Origin: a virus
Lineage: Duplodnaviria > Heunggongvirae > Uroviricota > Caudoviricetes
Length of the DNA: 9,500 nucleotides
Virus record (IMG/VR): IMGVR_UViG_2648501498_000020
Reading direction: 5' to 3' (one strand)
Each line of letters starts with the position of its first letter. Within the stretch, counting starts at the first letter, position 1. The notes beneath the pieces were generated by a model, which was not told the DNA's origin, did not search any database, and saw nothing but the letters and a program-made list of their open reading frames with translations. Positions 450-7,796 of the stretch are shown one piece after another. The translations under genes and the position numbers were made by a program.

Positions 450-550
450 CGCCCGCTTTGCGGGGCGGTTTCAATGCAGTTGCACTGACACGCTCAGGCC
501 GCGCCGGGAATGGCGCGGTCTGCAGAAAATGAGGCAGGAAAACGCATGCA

Positions 551-583
551 AAGCCATGCACCTTATCGATGCATGGCTTTTTT
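551..583. terminator. terminator-like hairpin between psu and cos
   Basis: Perfect 10-bp stem AAGCCATGCA (551-560) / TGCATGGCTT (570-579) with 9-nt loop, followed by a T-run on the plus strand (578-583); on the minus strand the hairpin is followed by GCATGCGTTTT. Lies just downstream of the psu stop, so it probably ends the sid-delta-psu transcript and may act bidirectionally. Confidence 0.45.
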
Positions 584-612
584 CAGTAAAACGGGCGGAT
601 TTTCGGGGAATT

Positions 613-1185
613 TTACACAGACTGATGTGATTCCAGTTGCGCACTTTTACGCGAAAAAATCATGTTCTGCGCAGGGGTGAATTTTTCACGGCTGTCATCC
701 ACCGAAGCCGCGTCAGGCCTGAATCCGATGGTCGTTAAAATGTCACTATCCTGTGCGGAATAATTAATTTTTTCCCCCTTCGCAAGCCAGGACAGAAGGG
801 CTTCACGCAGGGCATCTGTGGCACGCTGTATGGCACAGTTTCGGGCAATGGCCGTCAGCTCACTGTATCCCATCAGCTCCGGTGCCAGTGCCGCCGCCAG
901 TGCTGTGCCGTGCTGCTGCATAAAATCATTCAGCCGGTCGCGGATGCTGATGTGCTGAACGGCTTCATGCGAACGAATATAACGACCGGCGGCCTGATTC
1001 ACCTGCCATTTTCTGACTTCGATAATATTGCGTAATTCGTCCAGGCGACTGACGTTTCTGCCTTCCCCGGACAGAAGCCGCAGATATTCCTGTTCGGCCG
1101 CAGCCAGCTCATTTTTGCGTTGCAGCCATGCTGCTTTGTTATTCTGACAGGTGTCAAAGGCCTGCTGTAAGGCTGTGCTCTCCAT
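613..1185 (-). CDS. psu: Psu, polarity suppression protein (Rho antagonist / capsid decoration), P4-type
   Basis: 190-aa ORF recognised as P4 Psu; length matches my recollection. GAGAAAGAGA purine-rich SD upstream of the ATG. Last gene of the minus-strand late operon. Confidence 0.9.
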   Translation of the reverse strand: MESTALQQAFDTCQNNKAAWLQRKNELAAAEQEYLRLLSGEGRNVSRLDELRNIIEVRKWQVNQAAGRYIRSHEAVQHISIRDRLNDFMQQHGTALAAALAPELMGYSELTAIARNCAIQRATDALREALLSWLAKGEKINYSAQDSDILTTIGFRPDAASVDDSREKFTPAQNMIFSRKSAQLESHQSV

Positions 1186-1258
1186 CGTTATCTCTTTCTC
1201 ATCATGCTGAAGAATAAAAATACGGTGTGCGGCGACGGCCGGGGTTAACCGGCAGCCC

Positions 1259-1759
1259 TCATTCCAGACGCAGCGAATATGATTGTGTTTTTAACCGTAC
1301 TGGCGGCAGTTCCTGTTTTTCATGCAGGCGTTCTGCCAGTTCGTCCGGCGTGACCGGGCGGACAATGAAGCGGGTGATGGTCTGAAGCGTTTTAAACACC
1401 AGACCACAGCCCGGATCCGTGCACACATAAAAACGCTCGGTGACTTCCTGAGACAGACGCCGCGATGTTCTTGACAGTGCAAGGCCTTTACATCTCCGAC
1501 AACAATATCCGGTAACAAGCATTCTTTTCGGGCGTTTCATACTGCCGGAGGCTGACGTCAGTGAATCGCGGTATCTCTGTTTGCCTGAAATGTATTCCAT
1601 TCCTGAATCTTTACTGTCAGAGAAAAAGCTTTCACTCGCTTCAAATGTCGCAGAGCAATAAATATTCCGGCACTGTGCAATCATTATCTTGGTGCCATCG
1701 TCCATGAAATGTGCGCGACGAGTGTGAGCAACATGTCCACACGACGGGCAGTAAATCAT
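1259..1759 (-). CDS. delta: Delta, late-gene transcriptional activator (tandem Ogr-like zinc finger)
   Basis: 166 aa with two Cys4 modules (CPSCGH...CRNIYC and CCRRC...CTDPGC), consistent with a duplicated Ogr-type zinc finger as in P4 Delta. Start ATG overlaps the sid stop (ATGA). Confidence 0.9.
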   Translation of the reverse strand: MIYCPSCGHVAHTRRAHFMDDGTKIMIAQCRNIYCSATFEASESFFSDSKDSGMEYISGKQRYRDSLTSASGSMKRPKRMLVTGYCCRRCKGLALSRTSRRLSQEVTERFYVCTDPGCGLVFKTLQTITRFIVRPVTPDELAERLHEKQELPPVRLKTQSYSLRLE

Positions 1760-2490
1760 GACAGCAGTCCTCTGGCCTTAAGCTCTGCACCCTGCTGGTC
1801 TATTTTGTCCTGCCACACCTTGCGCTGTGCCGGTGTGCCTGCCACCTCATAATCCATGTGCGGGAGTGTTGCCGCTGACAGCCCGGTCAGCCGGAGAACC
1901 GGCTCGCCGGTGAGGCTGATTTGCATCTGTTTAATTTTCTGTTCCAGCGATGATTTCACCTGCTGCATGACAGCCTTTTCCGGTGCGACGTAGCCCTGAT
2001 GGCCGGTGGTGTTGGCGAGCGGATTTTCCTGTACCAGAATGCTCAGATGCATTGCCCGGACAAGCGCCTCACAGGTTTCATTCAGGGCGTGTTCCAGCTC
2101 ATGCTCTGCATACAGACTCAGAAGGTGATGATGTGCCTTCCGGTAGGCGGTGGCCGTGCTGTCACACGCCCCTTTCAGGCGTTCGCGTTCAAAATTCAGC
2201 ACCACGGCCAGATTGTCATATTCCTGTACCAGCTCCCGGCGTGCCACGCGCTCAATGTGGCGCTGTTTCAGCTCGTCGCTCAGGACACCACCGGCTGCAC
2301 GAAAGGCCGTGCGCCAGTCGTCAGCGTCGTTTCCGTCGGCCTGCGCCAGCGCATTTTTTTCCTGCTCTGCCCGTTCAATGGCCGTGACGGTCTCATCCAT
2401 CAGGCGGGCGTTCTCAAGATGGGCGGCTCTGGCCTTTTCCAGTTGTGCCAGCGCGGGTTGCAGATATTCAGGGATGGTGTTGTCAGACAT
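1756..2490 (-). CDS. sid: Sid, external scaffold / capsid size determination protein
   Basis: ORF track begins at a GTG (2508), but the ATG at 2490-2488 has AGGAG 8 nt upstream and gives 244 aa, the P4 Sid length I recall. Coiled-coil-like, Ala/Glu/Leu/Gln-rich sequence. Confidence 0.85.
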   Translation of the reverse strand: MSDNTIPEYLQPALAQLEKARAAHLENARLMDETVTAIERAEQEKNALAQADGNDADDWRTAFRAAGGVLSDELKQRHIERVARRELVQEYDNLAVVLNFERERLKGACDSTATAYRKAHHHLLSLYAEHELEHALNETCEALVRAMHLSILVQENPLANTTGHQGYVAPEKAVMQQVKSSLEQKIKQMQISLTGEPVLRLTGLSAATLPHMDYEVAGTPAQRKVWQDKIDQQGAELKARGLLS

Positions 2491-2562
2491 TTTCCGGCTC
2501 CTCGTCACTTCAGGTTAAGAAAATTGTGACGTACACCGGACAACAACACGACGCATTGCAGA

Positions 2563-2580
2563 TGTGCCAGCCCTGACACA
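2563..2580 (-). promoter_or_regulatory. candidate Delta/Ogr activator site (TGT-N12-ACA) for Psid
   Basis: TGTGCCAGCCCTGACACA fits the TGT-N12-ACA dyad of P2/P4 late promoters. Its centre is about 55 bp upstream of a predicted minus-strand start near 2516, leaving a ~26-nt leader before the sid ATG. Low-information motif. Confidence 0.3.
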
Positions 2581-2659
2581 GGAGACTCATCCTCAGACCG
2601 GCAAGCCAGGAAAAGGTCGCAGGAAAAACCGGCTTACTGTTTGTTTTTTTATATTTTAC

Positions 2660-2763
2660 TGTTCACCTCTGTTCACCTTAATAAAAAAGATAAGTAATAC
2701 AGTAAATTAAATGGTGAACAATCGCAGTAATGACTGTTCACCGTCTGTTCACCACTGTTCACC
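2660..2763. repeat. ori-like iteron cluster: six copies of octamer TGTTCACC (five direct, one inverted)
   Basis: TGTTCACC at 2660, 2670, 2735, 2746, 2756 and inverted GGTGAACA at 2713; an 80-bp stretch of >80% A+T follows (2770-2850). Same octamer recurs in crr (7494-7796). I recall P4 ori as holding six such alpha-binding iterons about 4.5 kb from crr; the spacing here is about 4.9 kb. Confidence 0.7.
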
Positions 2764-2922
2764 CGTTCATGGACTTTTTGTGCTGTTTATTACTTTTTAT
2801 TTTTATTAATTAACTGAAATAAATAAGAAAAAAACAATTTGTATTTCACTATAATTTTTTCCAGCTCCTTCCAGAGCGTTTTAAAGCTATCTGGCGTTGA
2901 TGTGCAAAAAACACACAGCAAT

Positions 2923-2940
2923 TGTAAGGCTGCCGGAACA
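2923..2940 (+). promoter_or_regulatory. candidate Delta/Ogr activator site (TGT-N12-ACA) for the late leftward promoter PLL upstream of vis
   Basis: TGTAAGGCTGCCGGAACA; centre about 110 bp upstream of the vis ATG. A start near 2986 would lie about 400 bp upstream of the PLE-like promoter, as I recall for P4. Confidence 0.3.
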
Positions 2941-3042
2941 AATCCCCCCTGTTGCGTCTGCTGAAAATATTCACAAAATAAAGCGCTACCCGAAGCCGGA
3001 CGGACTTATCCGGTGCTGTATGGACATTAACGAGGTAGCCCG

Positions 3043-3309
3043 ATGCAAGCTGTTTTTTCTTCCCCGTCTCCCGCCCCTGTGACGCCACTGATGCCGCTGC
3101 CGGACATCACGCAGGAGCGTTTTTTACGTCTGCCGGAAGTGATGCACCTGTGCGGCCTGTCACGCTCGACCATCTATGAACTCATCCGTAAGGGGGAATT
3201 TCCGCCGCAGGTGAGTCTTGGCGGTAAAAATGTGGCCTGGCTGCACTCTGAAGTCACTGCATGGATGGCCGGGCGCATTGCCGGACGCAAACGGGGGTAC
3301 GACGCATGA
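3043..3309 (+). CDS. vis: Vis, AlpA-family small DNA-binding regulator / excision directionality factor
   Basis: 88-aa ORF; GAGG SD 5-6 nt upstream of the ATG at 3043. [28 protein letters not shown] is a typical AlpA/Xis-type helix-turn-helix. Stop TGA 3307-3309 overlaps a downstream ATG (ATGA). Confidence 0.8.
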
Positions 3310-3905
3310 TGATGCCCGCTCTGCAAAAACTCCCTTTTTCTGGCTTGCCTTTTTCCGGCATTTGCGGATATAGTTTTTCCGCTGCCGCAAAATCGGCAGC
3401 CGGGCGTGAGAACCCGAGCAATCTAACGGCGACATATGACGCGCCATGCGTCTTTTTTTGTGTCGCAATCAACGCCACAGAGCGCCAGATTATGGTGTGG
3501 TGTGTGGTCAGTCGTGCAGATGGCATTCCGTGCATCCTGCCCGCGTCCGCTCATTATGCCGCAGAGTCAATGGTAGCTCAGGCGGGGCAGCCTCCGGGCT
3601 GGCCGGTATCCGTTAGAGCCGGTATTCTCACCCCCGTCTGGGCTATCGCCATCGAGCGTGAGAACTCCGGCGATAGCGTAACCTGCTATCTAACGGAGGC
3701 TGCCATCATGGCTACAACCCTTACCCCCTCACACCCTGAATTTGTCTTTGTGTTTGCGGCTGTCCGTCGCGCAGACCGTCATCCTCGTATCTGTATGCTT
3801 CGCACCGTCGCCGGTGATGAACGCAGCGCCCGCCGTTCCCTTGTCCGTGACTATGTGCTCTCCCTTGCTGCCCGTCTGCCGGTGGTGGAGGTGTCCCGTG
3901 CGTAA
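3306..3905 (+). CDS. long ORF (199 codons from ATGATGATG) spanning the immunity leader; possibly translated only on read-through from vis
   Basis: ORF track gives 3261..3905 (214 aa); the ATG at 3306 overlaps the vis stop (ATGA) and gives 199 codons. It runs across seqA, cI and seqC, and its start lies upstream of the PLE-like promoter, so PLE transcripts could not encode all of it. Coding status uncertain. Confidence 0.35.
3345..3374 (+). promoter_or_regulatory. candidate sigma70 promoter (PLE-like): TTGCCT -N18- TATAGT
   Basis: -35 TTGCCT (3345-3350) and -10 TATAGT (3369-3374), giving a predicted start near 3381, just upstream of seqA. Sequence inspection only. Confidence 0.4.
3406..3429 (+). 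promoter_or_regulatory. seqA: leader target complementary to cI RNA
   Basis: GTGAGAA...TCTAACGG; both blocks are exact reverse complements of the CCGTTAGA and TTCTCAC blocks at 3610-3631. Confidence 0.5.
3560..3650 (+). ncRNA. cI: cI immunity RNA region (approximate bounds) containing seqB
   Basis: seqB CCGTTAGAGCCGGTATTCTCAC (3610-3631) is complementary in two blocks to seqA (3406-3429) and seqC (3658-3696), with GC-rich hairpins around it (CAGCC-TCCG-GGCTG). Matches the P4 arrangement as I recall it. Ends not determinable from sequence. Confidence 0.5.
3658..3696 (+). promoter_or_regulatory. seqC: second target complementary to cI RNA, overlapping the kil ribosome-binding site
   Basis: GTGAGAA (3658-3664) ... 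TCTAACGG (3689-3696); the 3' block overlaps GGAGG (3695-3699), the SD of the ATG at 3708. Confidence 0.5.
3708..3905 (+). CDS. kil: Kil-like small protein (65 aa; in-frame internal start of the long ORF, eta possibly nested)
   Basis: ATG 3708 preceded by GGAGG (3695-3699) at 8-nt spacing; [65 protein letters not shown]. First start codon with a strong SD downstream of the cI region. kil/eta naming is from memory of the P4 literature. Confidence 0.5.
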
Positions 3906-4185
3906 TAAAAAAGCCCCTCAGACCGTCTCAGCACGTCATGACGCCCGTGAACACCTCAGCATTGAGGCTTACCATAAGCTCAACCGCGCCAGCGCCGTAT
4001 CCCGGTTTGTTGGGGGTGATTTGATTCACCGTGAACTCTCCGGTCTGCATCAGCTCTACATTCCGCATATTTTCAGCTACCTGAATGAAGATATTGATTT
4101 TGTGCTGAATGAGCTGAAAGCCAAAGGCCTGTGCCGCGATTTTCTCGCCCAGCAGAAAGACCGGGGAGACAGGACGCATGTTTGA
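3898..4185 (+). CDS. epsilon: Epsilon, anti-repressor of helper prophage (derepression of P2-like helper)
   Basis: GTG start at 3898 with GGAGG 8 nt upstream, overlapping the kil stop; gives 95 aa, the length I recall for P4 Epsilon. The ORF-track version (3742..4185) has an implausible N-terminal extension overlapping kil. Confidence 0.7.
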
Positions 4186-4633
4186 TTTTCCCCAGCCCGG
4201 TGAGATTTACCGTTCTGCCGGTTTTCCCGATGTGGCCGTGGTCGGCATTCTGGAAGACGGTATTCCGTGGGAAATGCCGTACCGCTGCCCGGACATTGTC
4301 TGGAATCCGTACCGCCGTAAATTCAGTATCCTTGTGCGTATCCTCGCTGACGGGCGCACCACAGACATCCCGCTGGGGCGTTTTCTGCGGGAATTTACCT
4401 GTGACCGTCCTGACCTGTTCAAACGCAGCCCCGTAAACCGGCATGCGGTACTGAAAGAAATGGCCGGAGACCCGGAATTACAGAAATGGCGGGAAAAATA
4501 TCTGGATATTTACCCGCAGGACCCTGTTCCGGTCAGCCGGGCAGCACCGGTAGCGCGGGAATGGCGGGAAATTCCCCGCACGGAGCCTGACCCGGAAACC
4601 ACCCCGGATAACAGTTACCGCAATTATCTGTAA
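4178..4633 (+). CDS. hypothetical protein, P4 orf151-like
   Basis: 151-aa ORF; start overlaps the epsilon stop; GGGGAGACAGG SD-like sequence upstream. Same size and position as P4 orf151. Confidence 0.8.
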   Translation: MFDFPQPGEIYRSAGFPDVAVVGILEDGIPWEMPYRCPDIVWNPYRRKFSILVRILADGRTTDIPLGRFLREFTCDRPDLFKRSPVNRHAVLKEMAGDPELQKWREKYLDIYPQDPVPVSRAAPVAREWREIPRTEPDPETTPDNSYRNYL

Positions 4634-4768
4634 TTAAAAAACGACACCCGAAAAATTAAATGTGCGTATTCGCGCAGGGATACGCACGTCTTCAGGAGAC
4701 GCAGATATGCCTTATCAGTTAATGCAACCGGCACGGAATGCAGTCATCTGTCACAGGGAGGAAAGCAA

Positions 4769-5089
4769 ATGAAAACACCCTTACCGCCCGTCTTACGCGC
4801 TGCCCTTTACCGTCGCGCTGTCGCCTGTGCCTGGCTGACCGTGTGCGAACGTCAGCACCGCTACCCGCATCTCACCCTTGAGTCACTGGAGGCGGCCATC
4901 GCCGCTGAGCTGGAAGGCTTTTATCTGCGCCAGCACGGTGAGGAAAAAGGGCGTCAGATAGCCTGTGCCCTGCTGGAAGATTTAATGGAATCCGGCCCCC
5001 TGAAGGCCGCGCCGTCGCTGTCCTTTCTCGGGCTGGTTGTGATGGATGAACTCTGTGCCCGTCACATAAAAGCGCCGGTACTGCACTGA
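4769..5089 (+). CDS. hypothetical protein, P4 orf106-like
   Basis: 106-aa ORF with GGGAGG SD 7-8 nt upstream; sits immediately upstream of alpha. Function unknown. Confidence 0.75.
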
Positions 5090-5103
5090 AGGAGAACAAC
5101 ACC

Positions 5104-5976
5104 ATGAAAATGAACGTAACCGCCACCGTCAGCCATGCACTCGGCCACTGGCCGCGTATTCTCCCGGCGCTGGGGATTCAGGTGCTGAAAAACCGTCATC
5201 AGCCCTGTCCGGTCTGTGGCGGGAGTGACCGCTTCCGTTTTGATGACAGGGAGGGGCGCGGCACCTGGTACTGCAATCAGTGTGGTGCCGGTGACGGCCT
5301 GAAACTGGTTGAAAAGGTGTTTGGTGTTTCCCCGTCCGACGCGGCCGCAAAGGTGGCTGCCGTGACCGGCAGCCTGCCCCCGGCTGACCCGGCAGTGACG
5401 GCCGCCGCCGGTGCTGAAACAGAAGCCGCCCGGAAGAACGCCGCCGCACTGGCACAAACCCTGATGGCGAAAACCCGTCCCGGAACCGGTAACGCCTACC
5501 TGACCCGCAAGGGCTTTCCCGGCCGGGAATGCCGGATGCTGACCGGCACACACAGAGCCGGTGGCGTGAGCTGGCGTGCCGGTGACCTTGTGGTGCCACT
5601 GTATGACGACAGCGGCGAACTGGTTAACCTTCAGTTAATCAGTGCTGACGGCCGTAAGCGCACCCTGAAAGGCGGACAGGTCAGGGGCACCTGTCACATC
5701 CTTGAAGGACAGAATCAGGCCGGAAAACGTCTGTGGATAGCGGAGGGATACGCGACCGCACTTACCGTGCATCACCTGACCGGTGAAACGGTGATGGTGG
5801 CGCTTTCTTCCGTGAACCTCCTTTCTCTGGCCAGCCTTGCCCGGCAGAAGCATCCGGCCTGTCAGATTGTCCTTGCCGCAGACCGTGACCTCAGCGGTGA
5901 CGGCCAGAAAAAAGCCGCCGCAGCCGCAGATGCGTGTGAAGGTGTTGTTGCCCTGCCGCCGGTCTTCGGTGACTGA
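5104..5976 (+). CDS. alpha: Alpha N-terminal fragment: zinc-binding + TOPRIM primase domain (ends at in-frame TGA)
   Basis: AGGAGA SD 8 nt upstream; CPVCGGSDRFRFDD...WYCNQCG zinc-binding motif and EGYATALT primase motif. Ends ...PVFGD then TGA at 5974-5976. Confidence 0.85.
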   Translation: MKMNVTATVSHALGHWPRILPALGIQVLKNRHQPCPVCGGSDRFRFDDREGRGTWYCNQCGAGDGLKLVEKVFGVSPSDAAAKVAAVTGSLPPADPAVTAAAGAETEAARKNAAALAQTLMAKTRPGTGNAYLTRKGFPGRECRMLTGTHRAGGVSWRAGDLVVPLYDDSGELVNLQLISADGRKRTLKGGQVRGTCHILEGQNQAGKRLWIAEGYATALTVHHLTGETVMVALSSVNLLSLASLARQKHPACQIVLAADRDLSGDGQKKAAAAADACEGVVALPPVFGD

Positions 5977-6066
5977 AATGATGCCTTCACGCAGTACGGC
6001 GGGGAAGCCACCCGTAAGGCCATTTACGATGCCATCCGGCCACCGGCTGAAAGCCCGTTCGATACC

Positions 6067-7437
6067 ATGAGCGAAGCGGAGTTTTCCGCCATGAGTACCA
6101 GCGAAAAGGCCATGCGTATCTATGAGCATTACGGCGAGGCGCTCGCGGTCGATGCCAACGGCCAGCTTCTGTCCCGCTATGAAAATGGTGTCTGGAAGGT
6201 GCTGCCGCCACAGGACTTTGCCCGGGATGTGGCCGGGCTGTTTCAGCGTCTGCGCGCGCCGTTCTCCTCCGGGAAGGTGGCCTCCGTGGTGGACACCCTG
6301 AAGCTGATTATTCCGCAGCAGGAAGCCCCCTCCCGCCGCCTGATTGGCTTTCGTAACGGCGTGCTCGACACGCAGAGCGGCACGTTCCACCCGCACAGTC
6401 CGTCACACTGGATGCGCACCCTGTGCGATGTGGATTTCACCCCACCGGTGGAAGGGGAAACGCTGGAAACCCACGCCCCCGCGTTCTGGCGCTGGCTTGA
6501 CCGTGCCGCCGGTGGCCGTGCGGAAAAACGCGACGTGATTCTGGCCGCACTGTTTATGGTGCTGGCAAACCGCTACGACTGGCAGCTCTTTCTGGAGGTG
6601 ACCGGTCCCGGCGGCAGCGGCAAAAGTATCATGGCCGAAATAGCCACCCTGCTGGCCGGGGAGGATAACGCCACGTCGGCCACCATCGAGACGCTGGAAT
6701 CCCCGCGTGAACGTGCCGCGTTAACTGGCTTCTCACTGATACGCCTGCCGGACCAGGAAAAATGGAGCGGCGACGGAGCCGGACTCAAGGCCATCACCGG
6801 CGGCGATGCGGTGTCCGTTGACCCGAAATACCGGGATGCGTACTCCACGCACATCCCGGCGGTGATTCTGGCCGTGAACAATAACCCGATGCGCTTCACC
6901 GACCGCAGCGGCGGCGTGTCACGCCGGCGGGTGATTATTCACTTCCCGGAACAGATAGCCCCGCAGGAGCGCGACCCGCAGCTTAAGGACAAAATCACCC
7001 GCGAGCTGGCGGTCATCGTGCGTCACCTGATGCAGAAATTCAGCGACCCGATGCTCGCCCGGTCACTGCTTCAGTCCCAGCAGAACTCAGACGAGGCGCT
7101 GAACATCAAACGGGATGCCGACCCGACGTTTGATTTTATCGGCTATCTGGAAACCCTGCCGCAGACCAGCGGCATGTATATGGGGAACGCCAGTATCATC
7201 CCGCGTAATTACCGTAAATACCTCTATCACGCCTATCTGGCCTACATGGAGGCAAACGGCTACCGGAATGTACTCAGTCTGAAAATGTTCGGGCTGGGGC
7301 TACCGGTGATGCTGAAGGAATACGGACTGAATTACGAGAAGCGCCATACCAAACAGGGGATACAGACCAACCTGACACTGAAAGAGGAAAGCTACGGCGA
7401 CTGGCTGCCAAAATGTGACGACCCTGCGACAACCTGA
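6067..7437 (+). CDS. alpha: Alpha C-terminal fragment: D5/SF3-type helicase (Walker A GPGGSGKS) plus C-terminal DNA-binding region
   Basis: Same reading frame as 5104..5976; 30 stop-free sense codons lie between the TGA and the ATG at 6067. Walker A GPGGSGKS, Walker-B-like VILAVNN. No convincing SD before 6067. Confidence 0.8.
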   Translation: MSEAEFSAMSTSEKAMRIYEHYGEALAVDANGQLLSRYENGVWKVLPPQDFARDVAGLFQRLRAPFSSGKVASVVDTLKLIIPQQEAPSRRLIGFRNGVLDTQSGTFHPHSPSHWMRTLCDVDFTPPVEGETLETHAPAFWRWLDRAAGGRAEKRDVILAALFMVLANRYDWQLFLEVTGPGGSGKSIMAEIATLLAGEDNATSATIETLESPRERAALTGFSLIRLPDQEKWSGDGAGLKAITGGDAVSVDPKYRDAYSTHIPAVILAVNNNPMRFTDRSGGVSRRRVIIHFPEQIAPQERDPQLKDKITRELAVIVRHLMQKFSDPMLARSLLQSQQNSDEALNIKRDADPTFDFIGYLETLPQTSGMYMGNASIIPRNYRKYLYHAYLAYMEANGYRNVLSLKMFGLGLPVMLKEYGLNYEKRHTKQGIQTNLTLKEESYGDWLPKCDDPATT

Positions 7438-7453
7438 CCATCATGACTCATCT

Positions 7454-7478
7454 GACCGGCATCTGCCGGTCTTTTTTT
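7454..7478 (+). terminator. intrinsic terminator downstream of alpha
   Basis: GACCGGC-ATCT-GCCGGTC hairpin followed by TTTTTTT, 17 nt after the alpha stop. Confidence 0.7.
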
Positions 7479-7493
7479 ATCCCGACATCCCCC

Positions 7494-7796
7494 GAAGGTG
7501 AACAATCTACTGTTCACCCTTCACCGTATATTCACCCGTTATCACACTGAAATTAAAAGAGAAAAACGAAAGGTGAACAGTGTGAACAATCAAATCAAAA
7601 AAAACTTTTTTCTCCCTGTGTGATTTTCAGTACGGGGGATTAATCACCGGTATGAGTCACACCAGCAGAATGCCGGAGGTGAAGAATCGAATGTTCACCC
7701 TTCACCCATTATTCACCACCTATCATACTGAAATAAAAGGAGAAAAAAGAAAGGTGAACAGTGTGAACAGTTCTTTCGAAAAAAAATTTTTTTCCT
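7494..7796. repeat. crr (cis replication region): two ~120-bp direct repeats about 181 bp apart, each with TGTTCACC / GGTGAACA iterons
   Basis: Repeat 1 about 7494-7615, repeat 2 about 7675-7796 (GAAGGTGAACAATCTACTGTTCACCCTTCACC... vs GGAGGTGAAGAATCGAATGTTCACCCTTCACC...; both end AAAGGTGAACAGTGTGAACA + A/T run). Matches my recollection of P4 crr as two 120-bp direct repeats separated by 60 bp. Confidence 0.75.

Follow-up and report, generated by a model that had tools for sequence, protein, structure and literature searches.

In the E. coli trp operon, trpB-trpA (AUGA) and trpE-trpD (UGAUG) are coupled by the overlap of a stop codon with the next start codon. Short ORFs placed ahead of other genes are known from further systems: tap-repA of R1 and repY-repZ of IncB/IncI-alpha have conserved leader ORFs that are targeted by antisense RNA, and short upstream ORFs also encode the attenuation leaders trpL, hisL and pheL and the arrest peptides ermCL, tnaC and secM. 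Among P4-like elements themselves, Moura de Sousa and Rocha described a 75-aa protein that is found in 61% of the elements, is encoded between epsilon and alpha, and is 'absent from P4' (PMC8628076). Here we consider a 21-codon ORF (the stub) immediately upstream of the copy-number gene cnr in a P4-type element. This ORF is probably a vestige of a lost gene of the family phrog_10110, and it may still bring ribosomes to cnr.

The ORF lies in a window of 9,500 nt (IMG/VR record IMGVR_UViG_2648501498_000020), by which we mean the whole stretch of DNA that was analysed. The window is a P4-type satellite prophage element with 97.7% identity to P4 over 450-7792 and 99.3% identity to phage P4 (X51522/NC_001609) over 4100-5300; past 7792, no alignment with the P4 stretch compared was found. 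It is distinct from P4 itself, with differences and indels densely clustered at 2768-2935, which is the late-promoter region between the ori repeats and orf88. Searches with Rfam located the P4 immunity RNAs, namely the C4/CI antisense RNA at 3566-3653 (74.5 bits), an isrK-like RNA at 3381-3458 (72 bits) and the c4 a1b1 target at 3368-3420. The alpha gene of the window has an in-frame TGA (5974-5976) where P4 has TGG (W291 to stop) and is split into pieces of 290 aa and 456 aa in the same frame, while at 59 other P4-type loci it is intact with 777 aa; probably, the window holds the copy of a decaying prophage, or else its alpha requires readthrough. The features that matter here are collected in Table 1; epsilon, orf151, cnr and alpha belong to the P4 left operon.

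Table 1. Features around the orf151-cnr spacer, in window positions.
Feature	Position	Strand	Basis or remark
epsilon	3898-4185	+	P4 left operon
orf151 (phrog_10748)	4178-4633	+	ORF list, P4 annotation, PHROG match (2.9e-101); upstream of the spacer
Conserved hairpin	4660-4689	+	RNA fold; conserved in the orf151-bearing relatives examined
Shine-Dalgarno AGGAG of the small ORF	4694-4698	+	Sequence
21-codon ORF (stub in the phrog_10110 gene slot)	4707-4772	+	Sequence, re-translation, comparison with relatives
cnr Shine-Dalgarno GGGAGG	4756-4761	+	Inside stub codons 17-19; RBS annotated in X05623
Predicted helix, cnr Shine-Dalgarno (4756-4765) with cnr codons 4-7 (4780-4789)	4756-4789	+	Fold; tentative
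cnr / orf106 (DUF5375, phrog_5991)	4769-5089	+	ATG overlaps the stub TGA
alpha (primase-helicase)	5104-7437	+	Next operon gene after cnr

The small ORF sits within the 135-nt gap between orf151 and orf106, the latter being cnr, of the family DUF5375. Its anatomy, as first described in a sequence-only reading of the window, was confirmed by inspection of the sequence and by re-translation: AGGAG is followed, after a spacer of 8 nt, by the ATG (4707-4709) of a 21-codon ORF, whose TGA (4770-4772) overlaps the ATG of cnr (4769-4771) as ATGA (4769-4772), and the last codons of the ORF contain the cnr Shine-Dalgarno, 7 nt before the cnr ATG. The 8-bp hairpin stem that the same reading had placed at 4661-4686 is also present, with coordinates that needed a shift of one base: its arms are GTGCGTAT (4662-4669) and ATACGCAC (4680-4687). 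AGGAG is unchanged in 153 P4-type copies. Position 4761 is G in the window and A in the P4 reference, where the peptide ends ...REKSK (E19K relative to the window) and the cnr Shine-Dalgarno is GGGAGA.

The ORF is annotated in none of the records that we examined, including the RefSeq annotations of about 900 E. coli copies. The literature searched likewise mentions neither the peptide nor any small ORF upstream of cnr, and no copy of the peptide or of its DNA occurs in the O157 Sakai small-gene supplements. The 21-aa peptide gave no match to PHROG and none to Pfam; its exact sequence is also absent from a collection of 15 billion proteins, which is uninformative given that gene callers skip ORFs this short. 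No promoter-like site that could act as an internal promoter for cnr-alpha was detected on either strand of 4000-5300, and GenBank X02534 marks only a '-10 consensus' there, at 4629-4634.

Overlap with the stop of an upstream ORF is a family-wide arrangement of cnr. Across 55 usable cnr loci, collected from different species, the cnr start overlaps such a stop, as ATGA or GTGA, in 54. The upstream ORF has 75 codons in 29 loci and 73-90 codons in 44, and four near-P4 contigs carry the 21-codon ORF in this place. Upstream proteins of 75 and 86 aa match phrog_10110 (at 3e-46 and 4.8e-40, respectively), with no sequence match in Pfam, NCBIfam or PDB. Pairwise differences per site in the phrog_10110 gene are 0.135, 0.105 and 0.305 at codon positions 1-3, a distribution that indicates purifying selection. 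Most elements with the 75-codon gene are without epsilon and orf151. In complete E. coli genomes, the P4-type junction was found in 904 of 5,426 (query coverage of at least 80%), the E272-type junction described below in 16, and a full-length phrog_10110 gene adjoining cnr in 85; in E. coli, then, the stub prevails, and elsewhere it is the exception. A separate case is the Raoultella scottii locus (L025, 2697-3004), whose phrog_10110 gene has a 1-nt deletion and a frameshift 23 codons before its end, which reads as an independent decay of the gene with the ATGA junction retained.

The stub can be compared with the full-length gene in relatives that also carry orf151, among them E. coli E272 (L061), a Serratia genome, two genomes of Enterobacteriaceae and several contigs from IMG/VR. 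Past the end of orf151, these relatives have the same A-rich spacer as P4 and then the hairpin. E272 and about 12 other loci share with P4 orf151, the hairpin, AGGAGAC and ATGCCT (window 4660-4712 from hairpin to start), and in these loci ATGCCT opens a phrog_10110 gene of 86-90 codons (86 in E272) that ends in ATGA with cnr. When P4 is compared with E272-like loci by BLAST, homology extends from orf151 past the hairpin and start codon as far as 4712 (or 4739, with gaps) and restarts at 4753-4756, at the cnr Shine-Dalgarno (about 40 loci). The P4 ORF and a real gene therefore have the start signals as well as the stop/start junction in common. The two ORFs differ in length by 195 nt (261 nt vs 66 nt), which is 65 codons, in frame.

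Other short forms occur in the same place, such that the series behind the same hairpin and Shine-Dalgarno comprises 86, 24, 21 and 0 codons. The 24-codon form, an intermediate in locus L088, is a stub (MPYKQNNDAINHNNPCSLTGEVNI) with the start ATGCCTTAT; over its final 12 codons it can be aligned in frame to the 3' end of the complete gene (p=0.018), and its peptide is unrelated to that of the P4 stub after MPY. In L056, the stub is absent, and hairpin, Shine-Dalgarno and ATG are fused directly onto cnr at about codon 3. The slot is occupied in relatives by a gene of 73-90 codons or by the unlike stub of 24 codons, or else it is empty. In the L056 locus (2950-3321, Scandinavium sp.) the N-terminus of cnr becomes MADQLTPVLRV; the heptamer CAGTTAA, common to both sequences, suggests that this form arose by microhomology deletion from a P4-like stub, with the similarity between the L056 cnr start and the P4 stub being without statistical support. 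Another variant was seen in a metagenome contig (L183), where nine consecutive C stand in place of the first cnr codons, just after the ATG (ATGCCCCCCCCCTTACC), and the stub reads through to 43 codons; this run is probably an artefact of assembly or sequencing.

Our reading of the stub rests on its two ends and its position, since the interior (4713-4755, 43 nt) has no significant similarity to anything with which we compared it, i.e., the E272 gene (5' part, 3' part or whole), the L088 stub and the 5' end of the L056 cnr. Permutation tests against the E272 gene and the L088 stub gave p values from 0.09 to 0.84. For this reason we do not claim a simple two-breakpoint deletion, given that the interior matches no part of the full gene. 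An alternative placement by MAFFT, in which the stub is matched to the 23 codons at the 3' end of the full gene and ATG 4707 to an internal Met, was rejected as unreliable, as its middle is about 43% identical and BLAST gives it no support. With regard to family membership, the stub has the slot upstream of cnr and the ATGA junction with the cnr Shine-Dalgarno in common with the phrog_10110 gene, as well as the hairpin, AGGAGAC and the ATGCCT start in common with that gene in orf151-bearing elements. On the other hand, it lacks a profile match and interior homology, and whereas the family gene has 73-90 codons and is under selection, the P4 stub has 21 codons, no HMM match and a peptide that is not under selection. 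By sequence, then, the stub is to be regarded as a non-member of phrog_10110 that appears to use the slot, start and stop signals of a phrog_10110 gene.

These observations make it likely that the stub originated from a lost gene. Most simply, the long form is ancestral, because the full gene is widespread across genera and selected while the short form is confined to P4-type sequences. The ancestor would have had, directly before cnr, a phrog_10110 gene of 73-90 codons whose TGA overlapped the cnr ATG. P4-type sequences would then have lost all of it except the translation start and the last five or so codons, which hold the cnr Shine-Dalgarno, at a net cost of 195 nt and in frame, and the outcome would be a short ORF that begins at the former start and ends in the former stop/start junction. 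The route may have been a single internal deletion, decay in several steps, or a recombination event that joined gene modules. As for present function, we suppose that ribosomes would still enter at the start signals handed down from the gene, read the 21 codons and stop on the cnr AUG. In this way cnr would retain the ancestral coupling by termination and reinitiation, and the predicted pairing of its Shine-Dalgarno would be opened. Any such effect would come from translation as such, whatever the peptide.

The likeness to trpB-trpA-type coupling is close in anatomy: the same AUGA overlap is present, the downstream Shine-Dalgarno lies in the end of the upstream ORF, and the arrangement is conserved across the family. 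It differs in that the upstream partner in P4 would be a 21-codon remnant without a product of its own. The overlap of stop and start, with the cnr Shine-Dalgarno inside the upstream ORF, is a feature of coupled pairs, and it is possible that the stub delivers ribosomes to the cnr start independently of the peptide sequence. Structure prediction adds to this a helix between the G-rich Shine-Dalgarno and the C-rich Pro-Leu-Pro-Pro codons 4-7 of cnr, with pair probabilities of 0.74-0.99 in three sequence contexts and the AUG in a 14-nt loop. Across relatives, four of its pairs are G-C in 80-94% of sequences and the outermost in 43%, and the pairs are kept in 66-97% when G-U and A-U are counted as well. 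In 35 distinct homologous sequences, 72% of cells are paired, a value that does not exceed controls. We regard the helix as tentative, because the same 35 sequences show no covariation beyond controls and RNAalifold returns no consensus. Its pairing is moreover inseparable from coding and Shine-Dalgarno constraints, as one strand is the Shine-Dalgarno and the other consists of proline codons.

The main alternative is that the ORF is a remnant without effect on cnr, either because it is poorly translated or because cnr uses its own GGGAGG. We consider this rather unlikely, although several observations are in its favour. The 6-nt Shine-Dalgarno of cnr is strong and optimally spaced, such that coupling may be dispensable; the AUG of the stub is itself predicted to be mostly paired (probability of being unpaired, 0.16); and the helix that would hide the cnr Shine-Dalgarno is the one without covariation support. 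One locus (L090) has lost the stub start (ATG to ATA) and retains intact cnr (106 aa) and alpha (777 aa), and L056 manages without a stub. Neutral evolution of the peptide, shown in the next paragraph, is also what such a relic would display. What stands against this alternative is the stop/start overlap at cnr in nearly every locus, the predicted sequestration of the cnr Shine-Dalgarno, and the fact that the stages of 86, 24, 21 and 0 codons all keep hairpin, Shine-Dalgarno and ATG in phase with the entry into cnr. No frameshift or stop was found in the stub among the 153 P4-type copies, a result of low statistical power. That both stub forms are in frame has a chance of about 1 in 9 without selection and is weak evidence for a selected coupling.

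Selection on the peptide was assessed in 153 ungapped P4-type copies, representing 74 haplotypes from IMG/VR, metagenomes and genomes; the metagenome search with orf151 returned only near-identical P4-type copies, which served the polymorphism counts and not the assessment of diversity. The stub has 10 variable sites, of which 9 are non-synonymous (one being the start loss) and 1 is synonymous, while cnr has 11 non-synonymous and 25 synonymous ones (Fisher p=0.0011 for stub vs cnr); in an earlier subset, the third codon position holds 17/20 of the variable sites in cnr. The density of variable sites in the stub (0.16) is no lower than in the flanking spacer (0.10), and a single replacement, S20N, is present in 60/153 copies. 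Taken together, the substitution pattern indicates that the stub peptide is not under purifying selection. The peptide sequence being unconserved, it argues against both readings in which the peptide itself matters. The upstream neighbour orf151 was also compared in 74 P4-type copies: its 49 variable sites are spread near-evenly over codon positions (14, 12 and 23), whereas those of cnr in the same comparison number 1, 2 and 17, which suggests that orf151 is under much weaker constraint than cnr.

The first of these readings is that of a regulatory leader, in which the peptide or a ribosome stalled on it would sense a signal and control cnr and alpha. This was the interpretation offered by the sequence-only reading, and it has the appearance of the locus on its side: a short ORF with a good Shine-Dalgarno overlaps the ribosome-binding site of a regulated gene, and a conserved hairpin stands before it. 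Nevertheless, we find it very unlikely. Conservation across P4-like elements had been put forward as its test, and the small ORF proved not to be conserved outside P4-type sequences, while within them nine of the ten polymorphisms alter the peptide or remove its start. The peptide has no tandem runs of regulatory codons, and no terminator-like or alternative structure lies between the ORF and cnr: none of the former was found on the + strand of 4707-5104, and the 2 terminator-like matches in 4000-5300 are both elsewhere, with 1.3 expected by chance; the fold z-score is -1.15. Rfam gave no family match in 4600-4800 (E<=1). Finally, the hairpin is upstream of the ORF, and an attenuator would be downstream. 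Thus, while the stub resembles attenuation and arrest leaders as a short ORF upstream of regulated genes, it has neither their regulatory codon runs nor a terminator/antiterminator nor a conserved peptide, and it is not an attenuation leader.

A more specific likeness is that to R1 tap-repA and repY-repZ: in P4 as in these systems, a leader that has about 20-30 codons and a Shine-Dalgarno of its own terminates where a replication-control gene begins, and the ribosome-binding site of that gene falls inside the leader, in a stretch with predicted structure. The P4 ORF is, however, unconserved, and the gene downstream of it encodes the negative regulator Cnr and not an initiator. An antisense RNA of the R1 type at the start of the stub was sought through Rfam families (4600-4800) and promoter-like sites (4000-5300), and neither search gave one. 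With an unconserved ORF and no antisense RNA brought to light by these searches, the P4 arrangement does not belong to these systems.

The second reading that depends on the peptide, a functional micro-protein of 21 residues acting in P4 biology, is highly improbable; only the good start signals and an ORF that is intact in about 150 copies speak for it, and they are outweighed by the neutral substitution pattern, the lack of homologues and of family matches, the unrelated peptide of the L088 stub and the frequency of S20N. Nor is there much to be said for a chance ORF in an intergenic spacer, an equally implausible explanation: short ORFs are common and 8.4% of 20,000 shuffles of the 135-nt spacer contain an ATG ORF of at least 15 codons that ends at ATGA, but the figure falls to 0.23% once a 5-nt Shine-Dalgarno is required with the exact ATGA end, because of which the arrangement is not one of chance, and the start signals appear to be inherited from the start of a real gene, to which both ends of the ORF are homologous.

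If the stub is the vestige that we take it to be, the 135 nt that separate orf151 from cnr in P4 would be the former site of a gene that is common in relatives and whose start and stop signals survive, which fills in the published description of P4 as an element that 'lacks' the 75-aa protein. The full gene, the 24-codon stub, the 21-codon stub and the direct fusion form a natural series that could be used to test upstream ribosome delivery to cnr. There is also a caution here for genome scans, in that a well-formed small ORF, led by a Shine-Dalgarno and overlapping the start of the next gene, can be the remnant of a gene. The relevance of these points is modest and chiefly for P4 researchers. 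A stronger version, in which selection keeps the stub as a sequence-independent device for ribosome delivery to cnr, seems to us unlikely. Were it true, hairpin, Shine-Dalgarno and ATG would be the real loading site for the translation of cnr, a minimal ORF would have been kept after the loss of the gene and would open the masked cnr Shine-Dalgarno, and the forms of 86, 24, 21 and 0 codons, all in phase with the cnr entry, would be successive solutions to one constraint.

The hairpin upstream of the stub has in part been noted before, as GenBank X02534 already labels its dyad a 'region of dyad symmetry'. As RNA it has 12 pairs (4660-4671 with 4678-4689) around the loop GCGCAG. It is kept in every orf151-bearing element examined, and these comparisons make it part of the start region of the gene that follows orf151. 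Among six distinct variants, 8 pairs are invariant; 4670/4679 occurs as U-G, C-G and U-A, 4671/4678 as C-G and U-G, and 4662/4687 as G-C and G-U, while the outermost pair (4660/4689) is unpaired in 1/6. This pattern fits a structure at the RNA level, and the covariation does not exceed the shuffle control (232/500), with only 6 distinct variants available for the comparison. The hairpin is not an intrinsic terminator, because no T run follows it on its 3' side. On Northern blots of P4, an early-promoter RNA of 1.3 kb is reportedly seen, whose 3' end would fall near the hairpin, and we mention this as a lead only. In several E. coli genomes, homology to the window starts at 4667, inside what the fold shows as the hairpin, beside an element of the IS66 family (for example L060, 2447-2501, in E. 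coli 2013C-4187, and at least 3 other genomes); in these, the IS66-family insertion separates orf151 and half of the hairpin from the stub and cnr.
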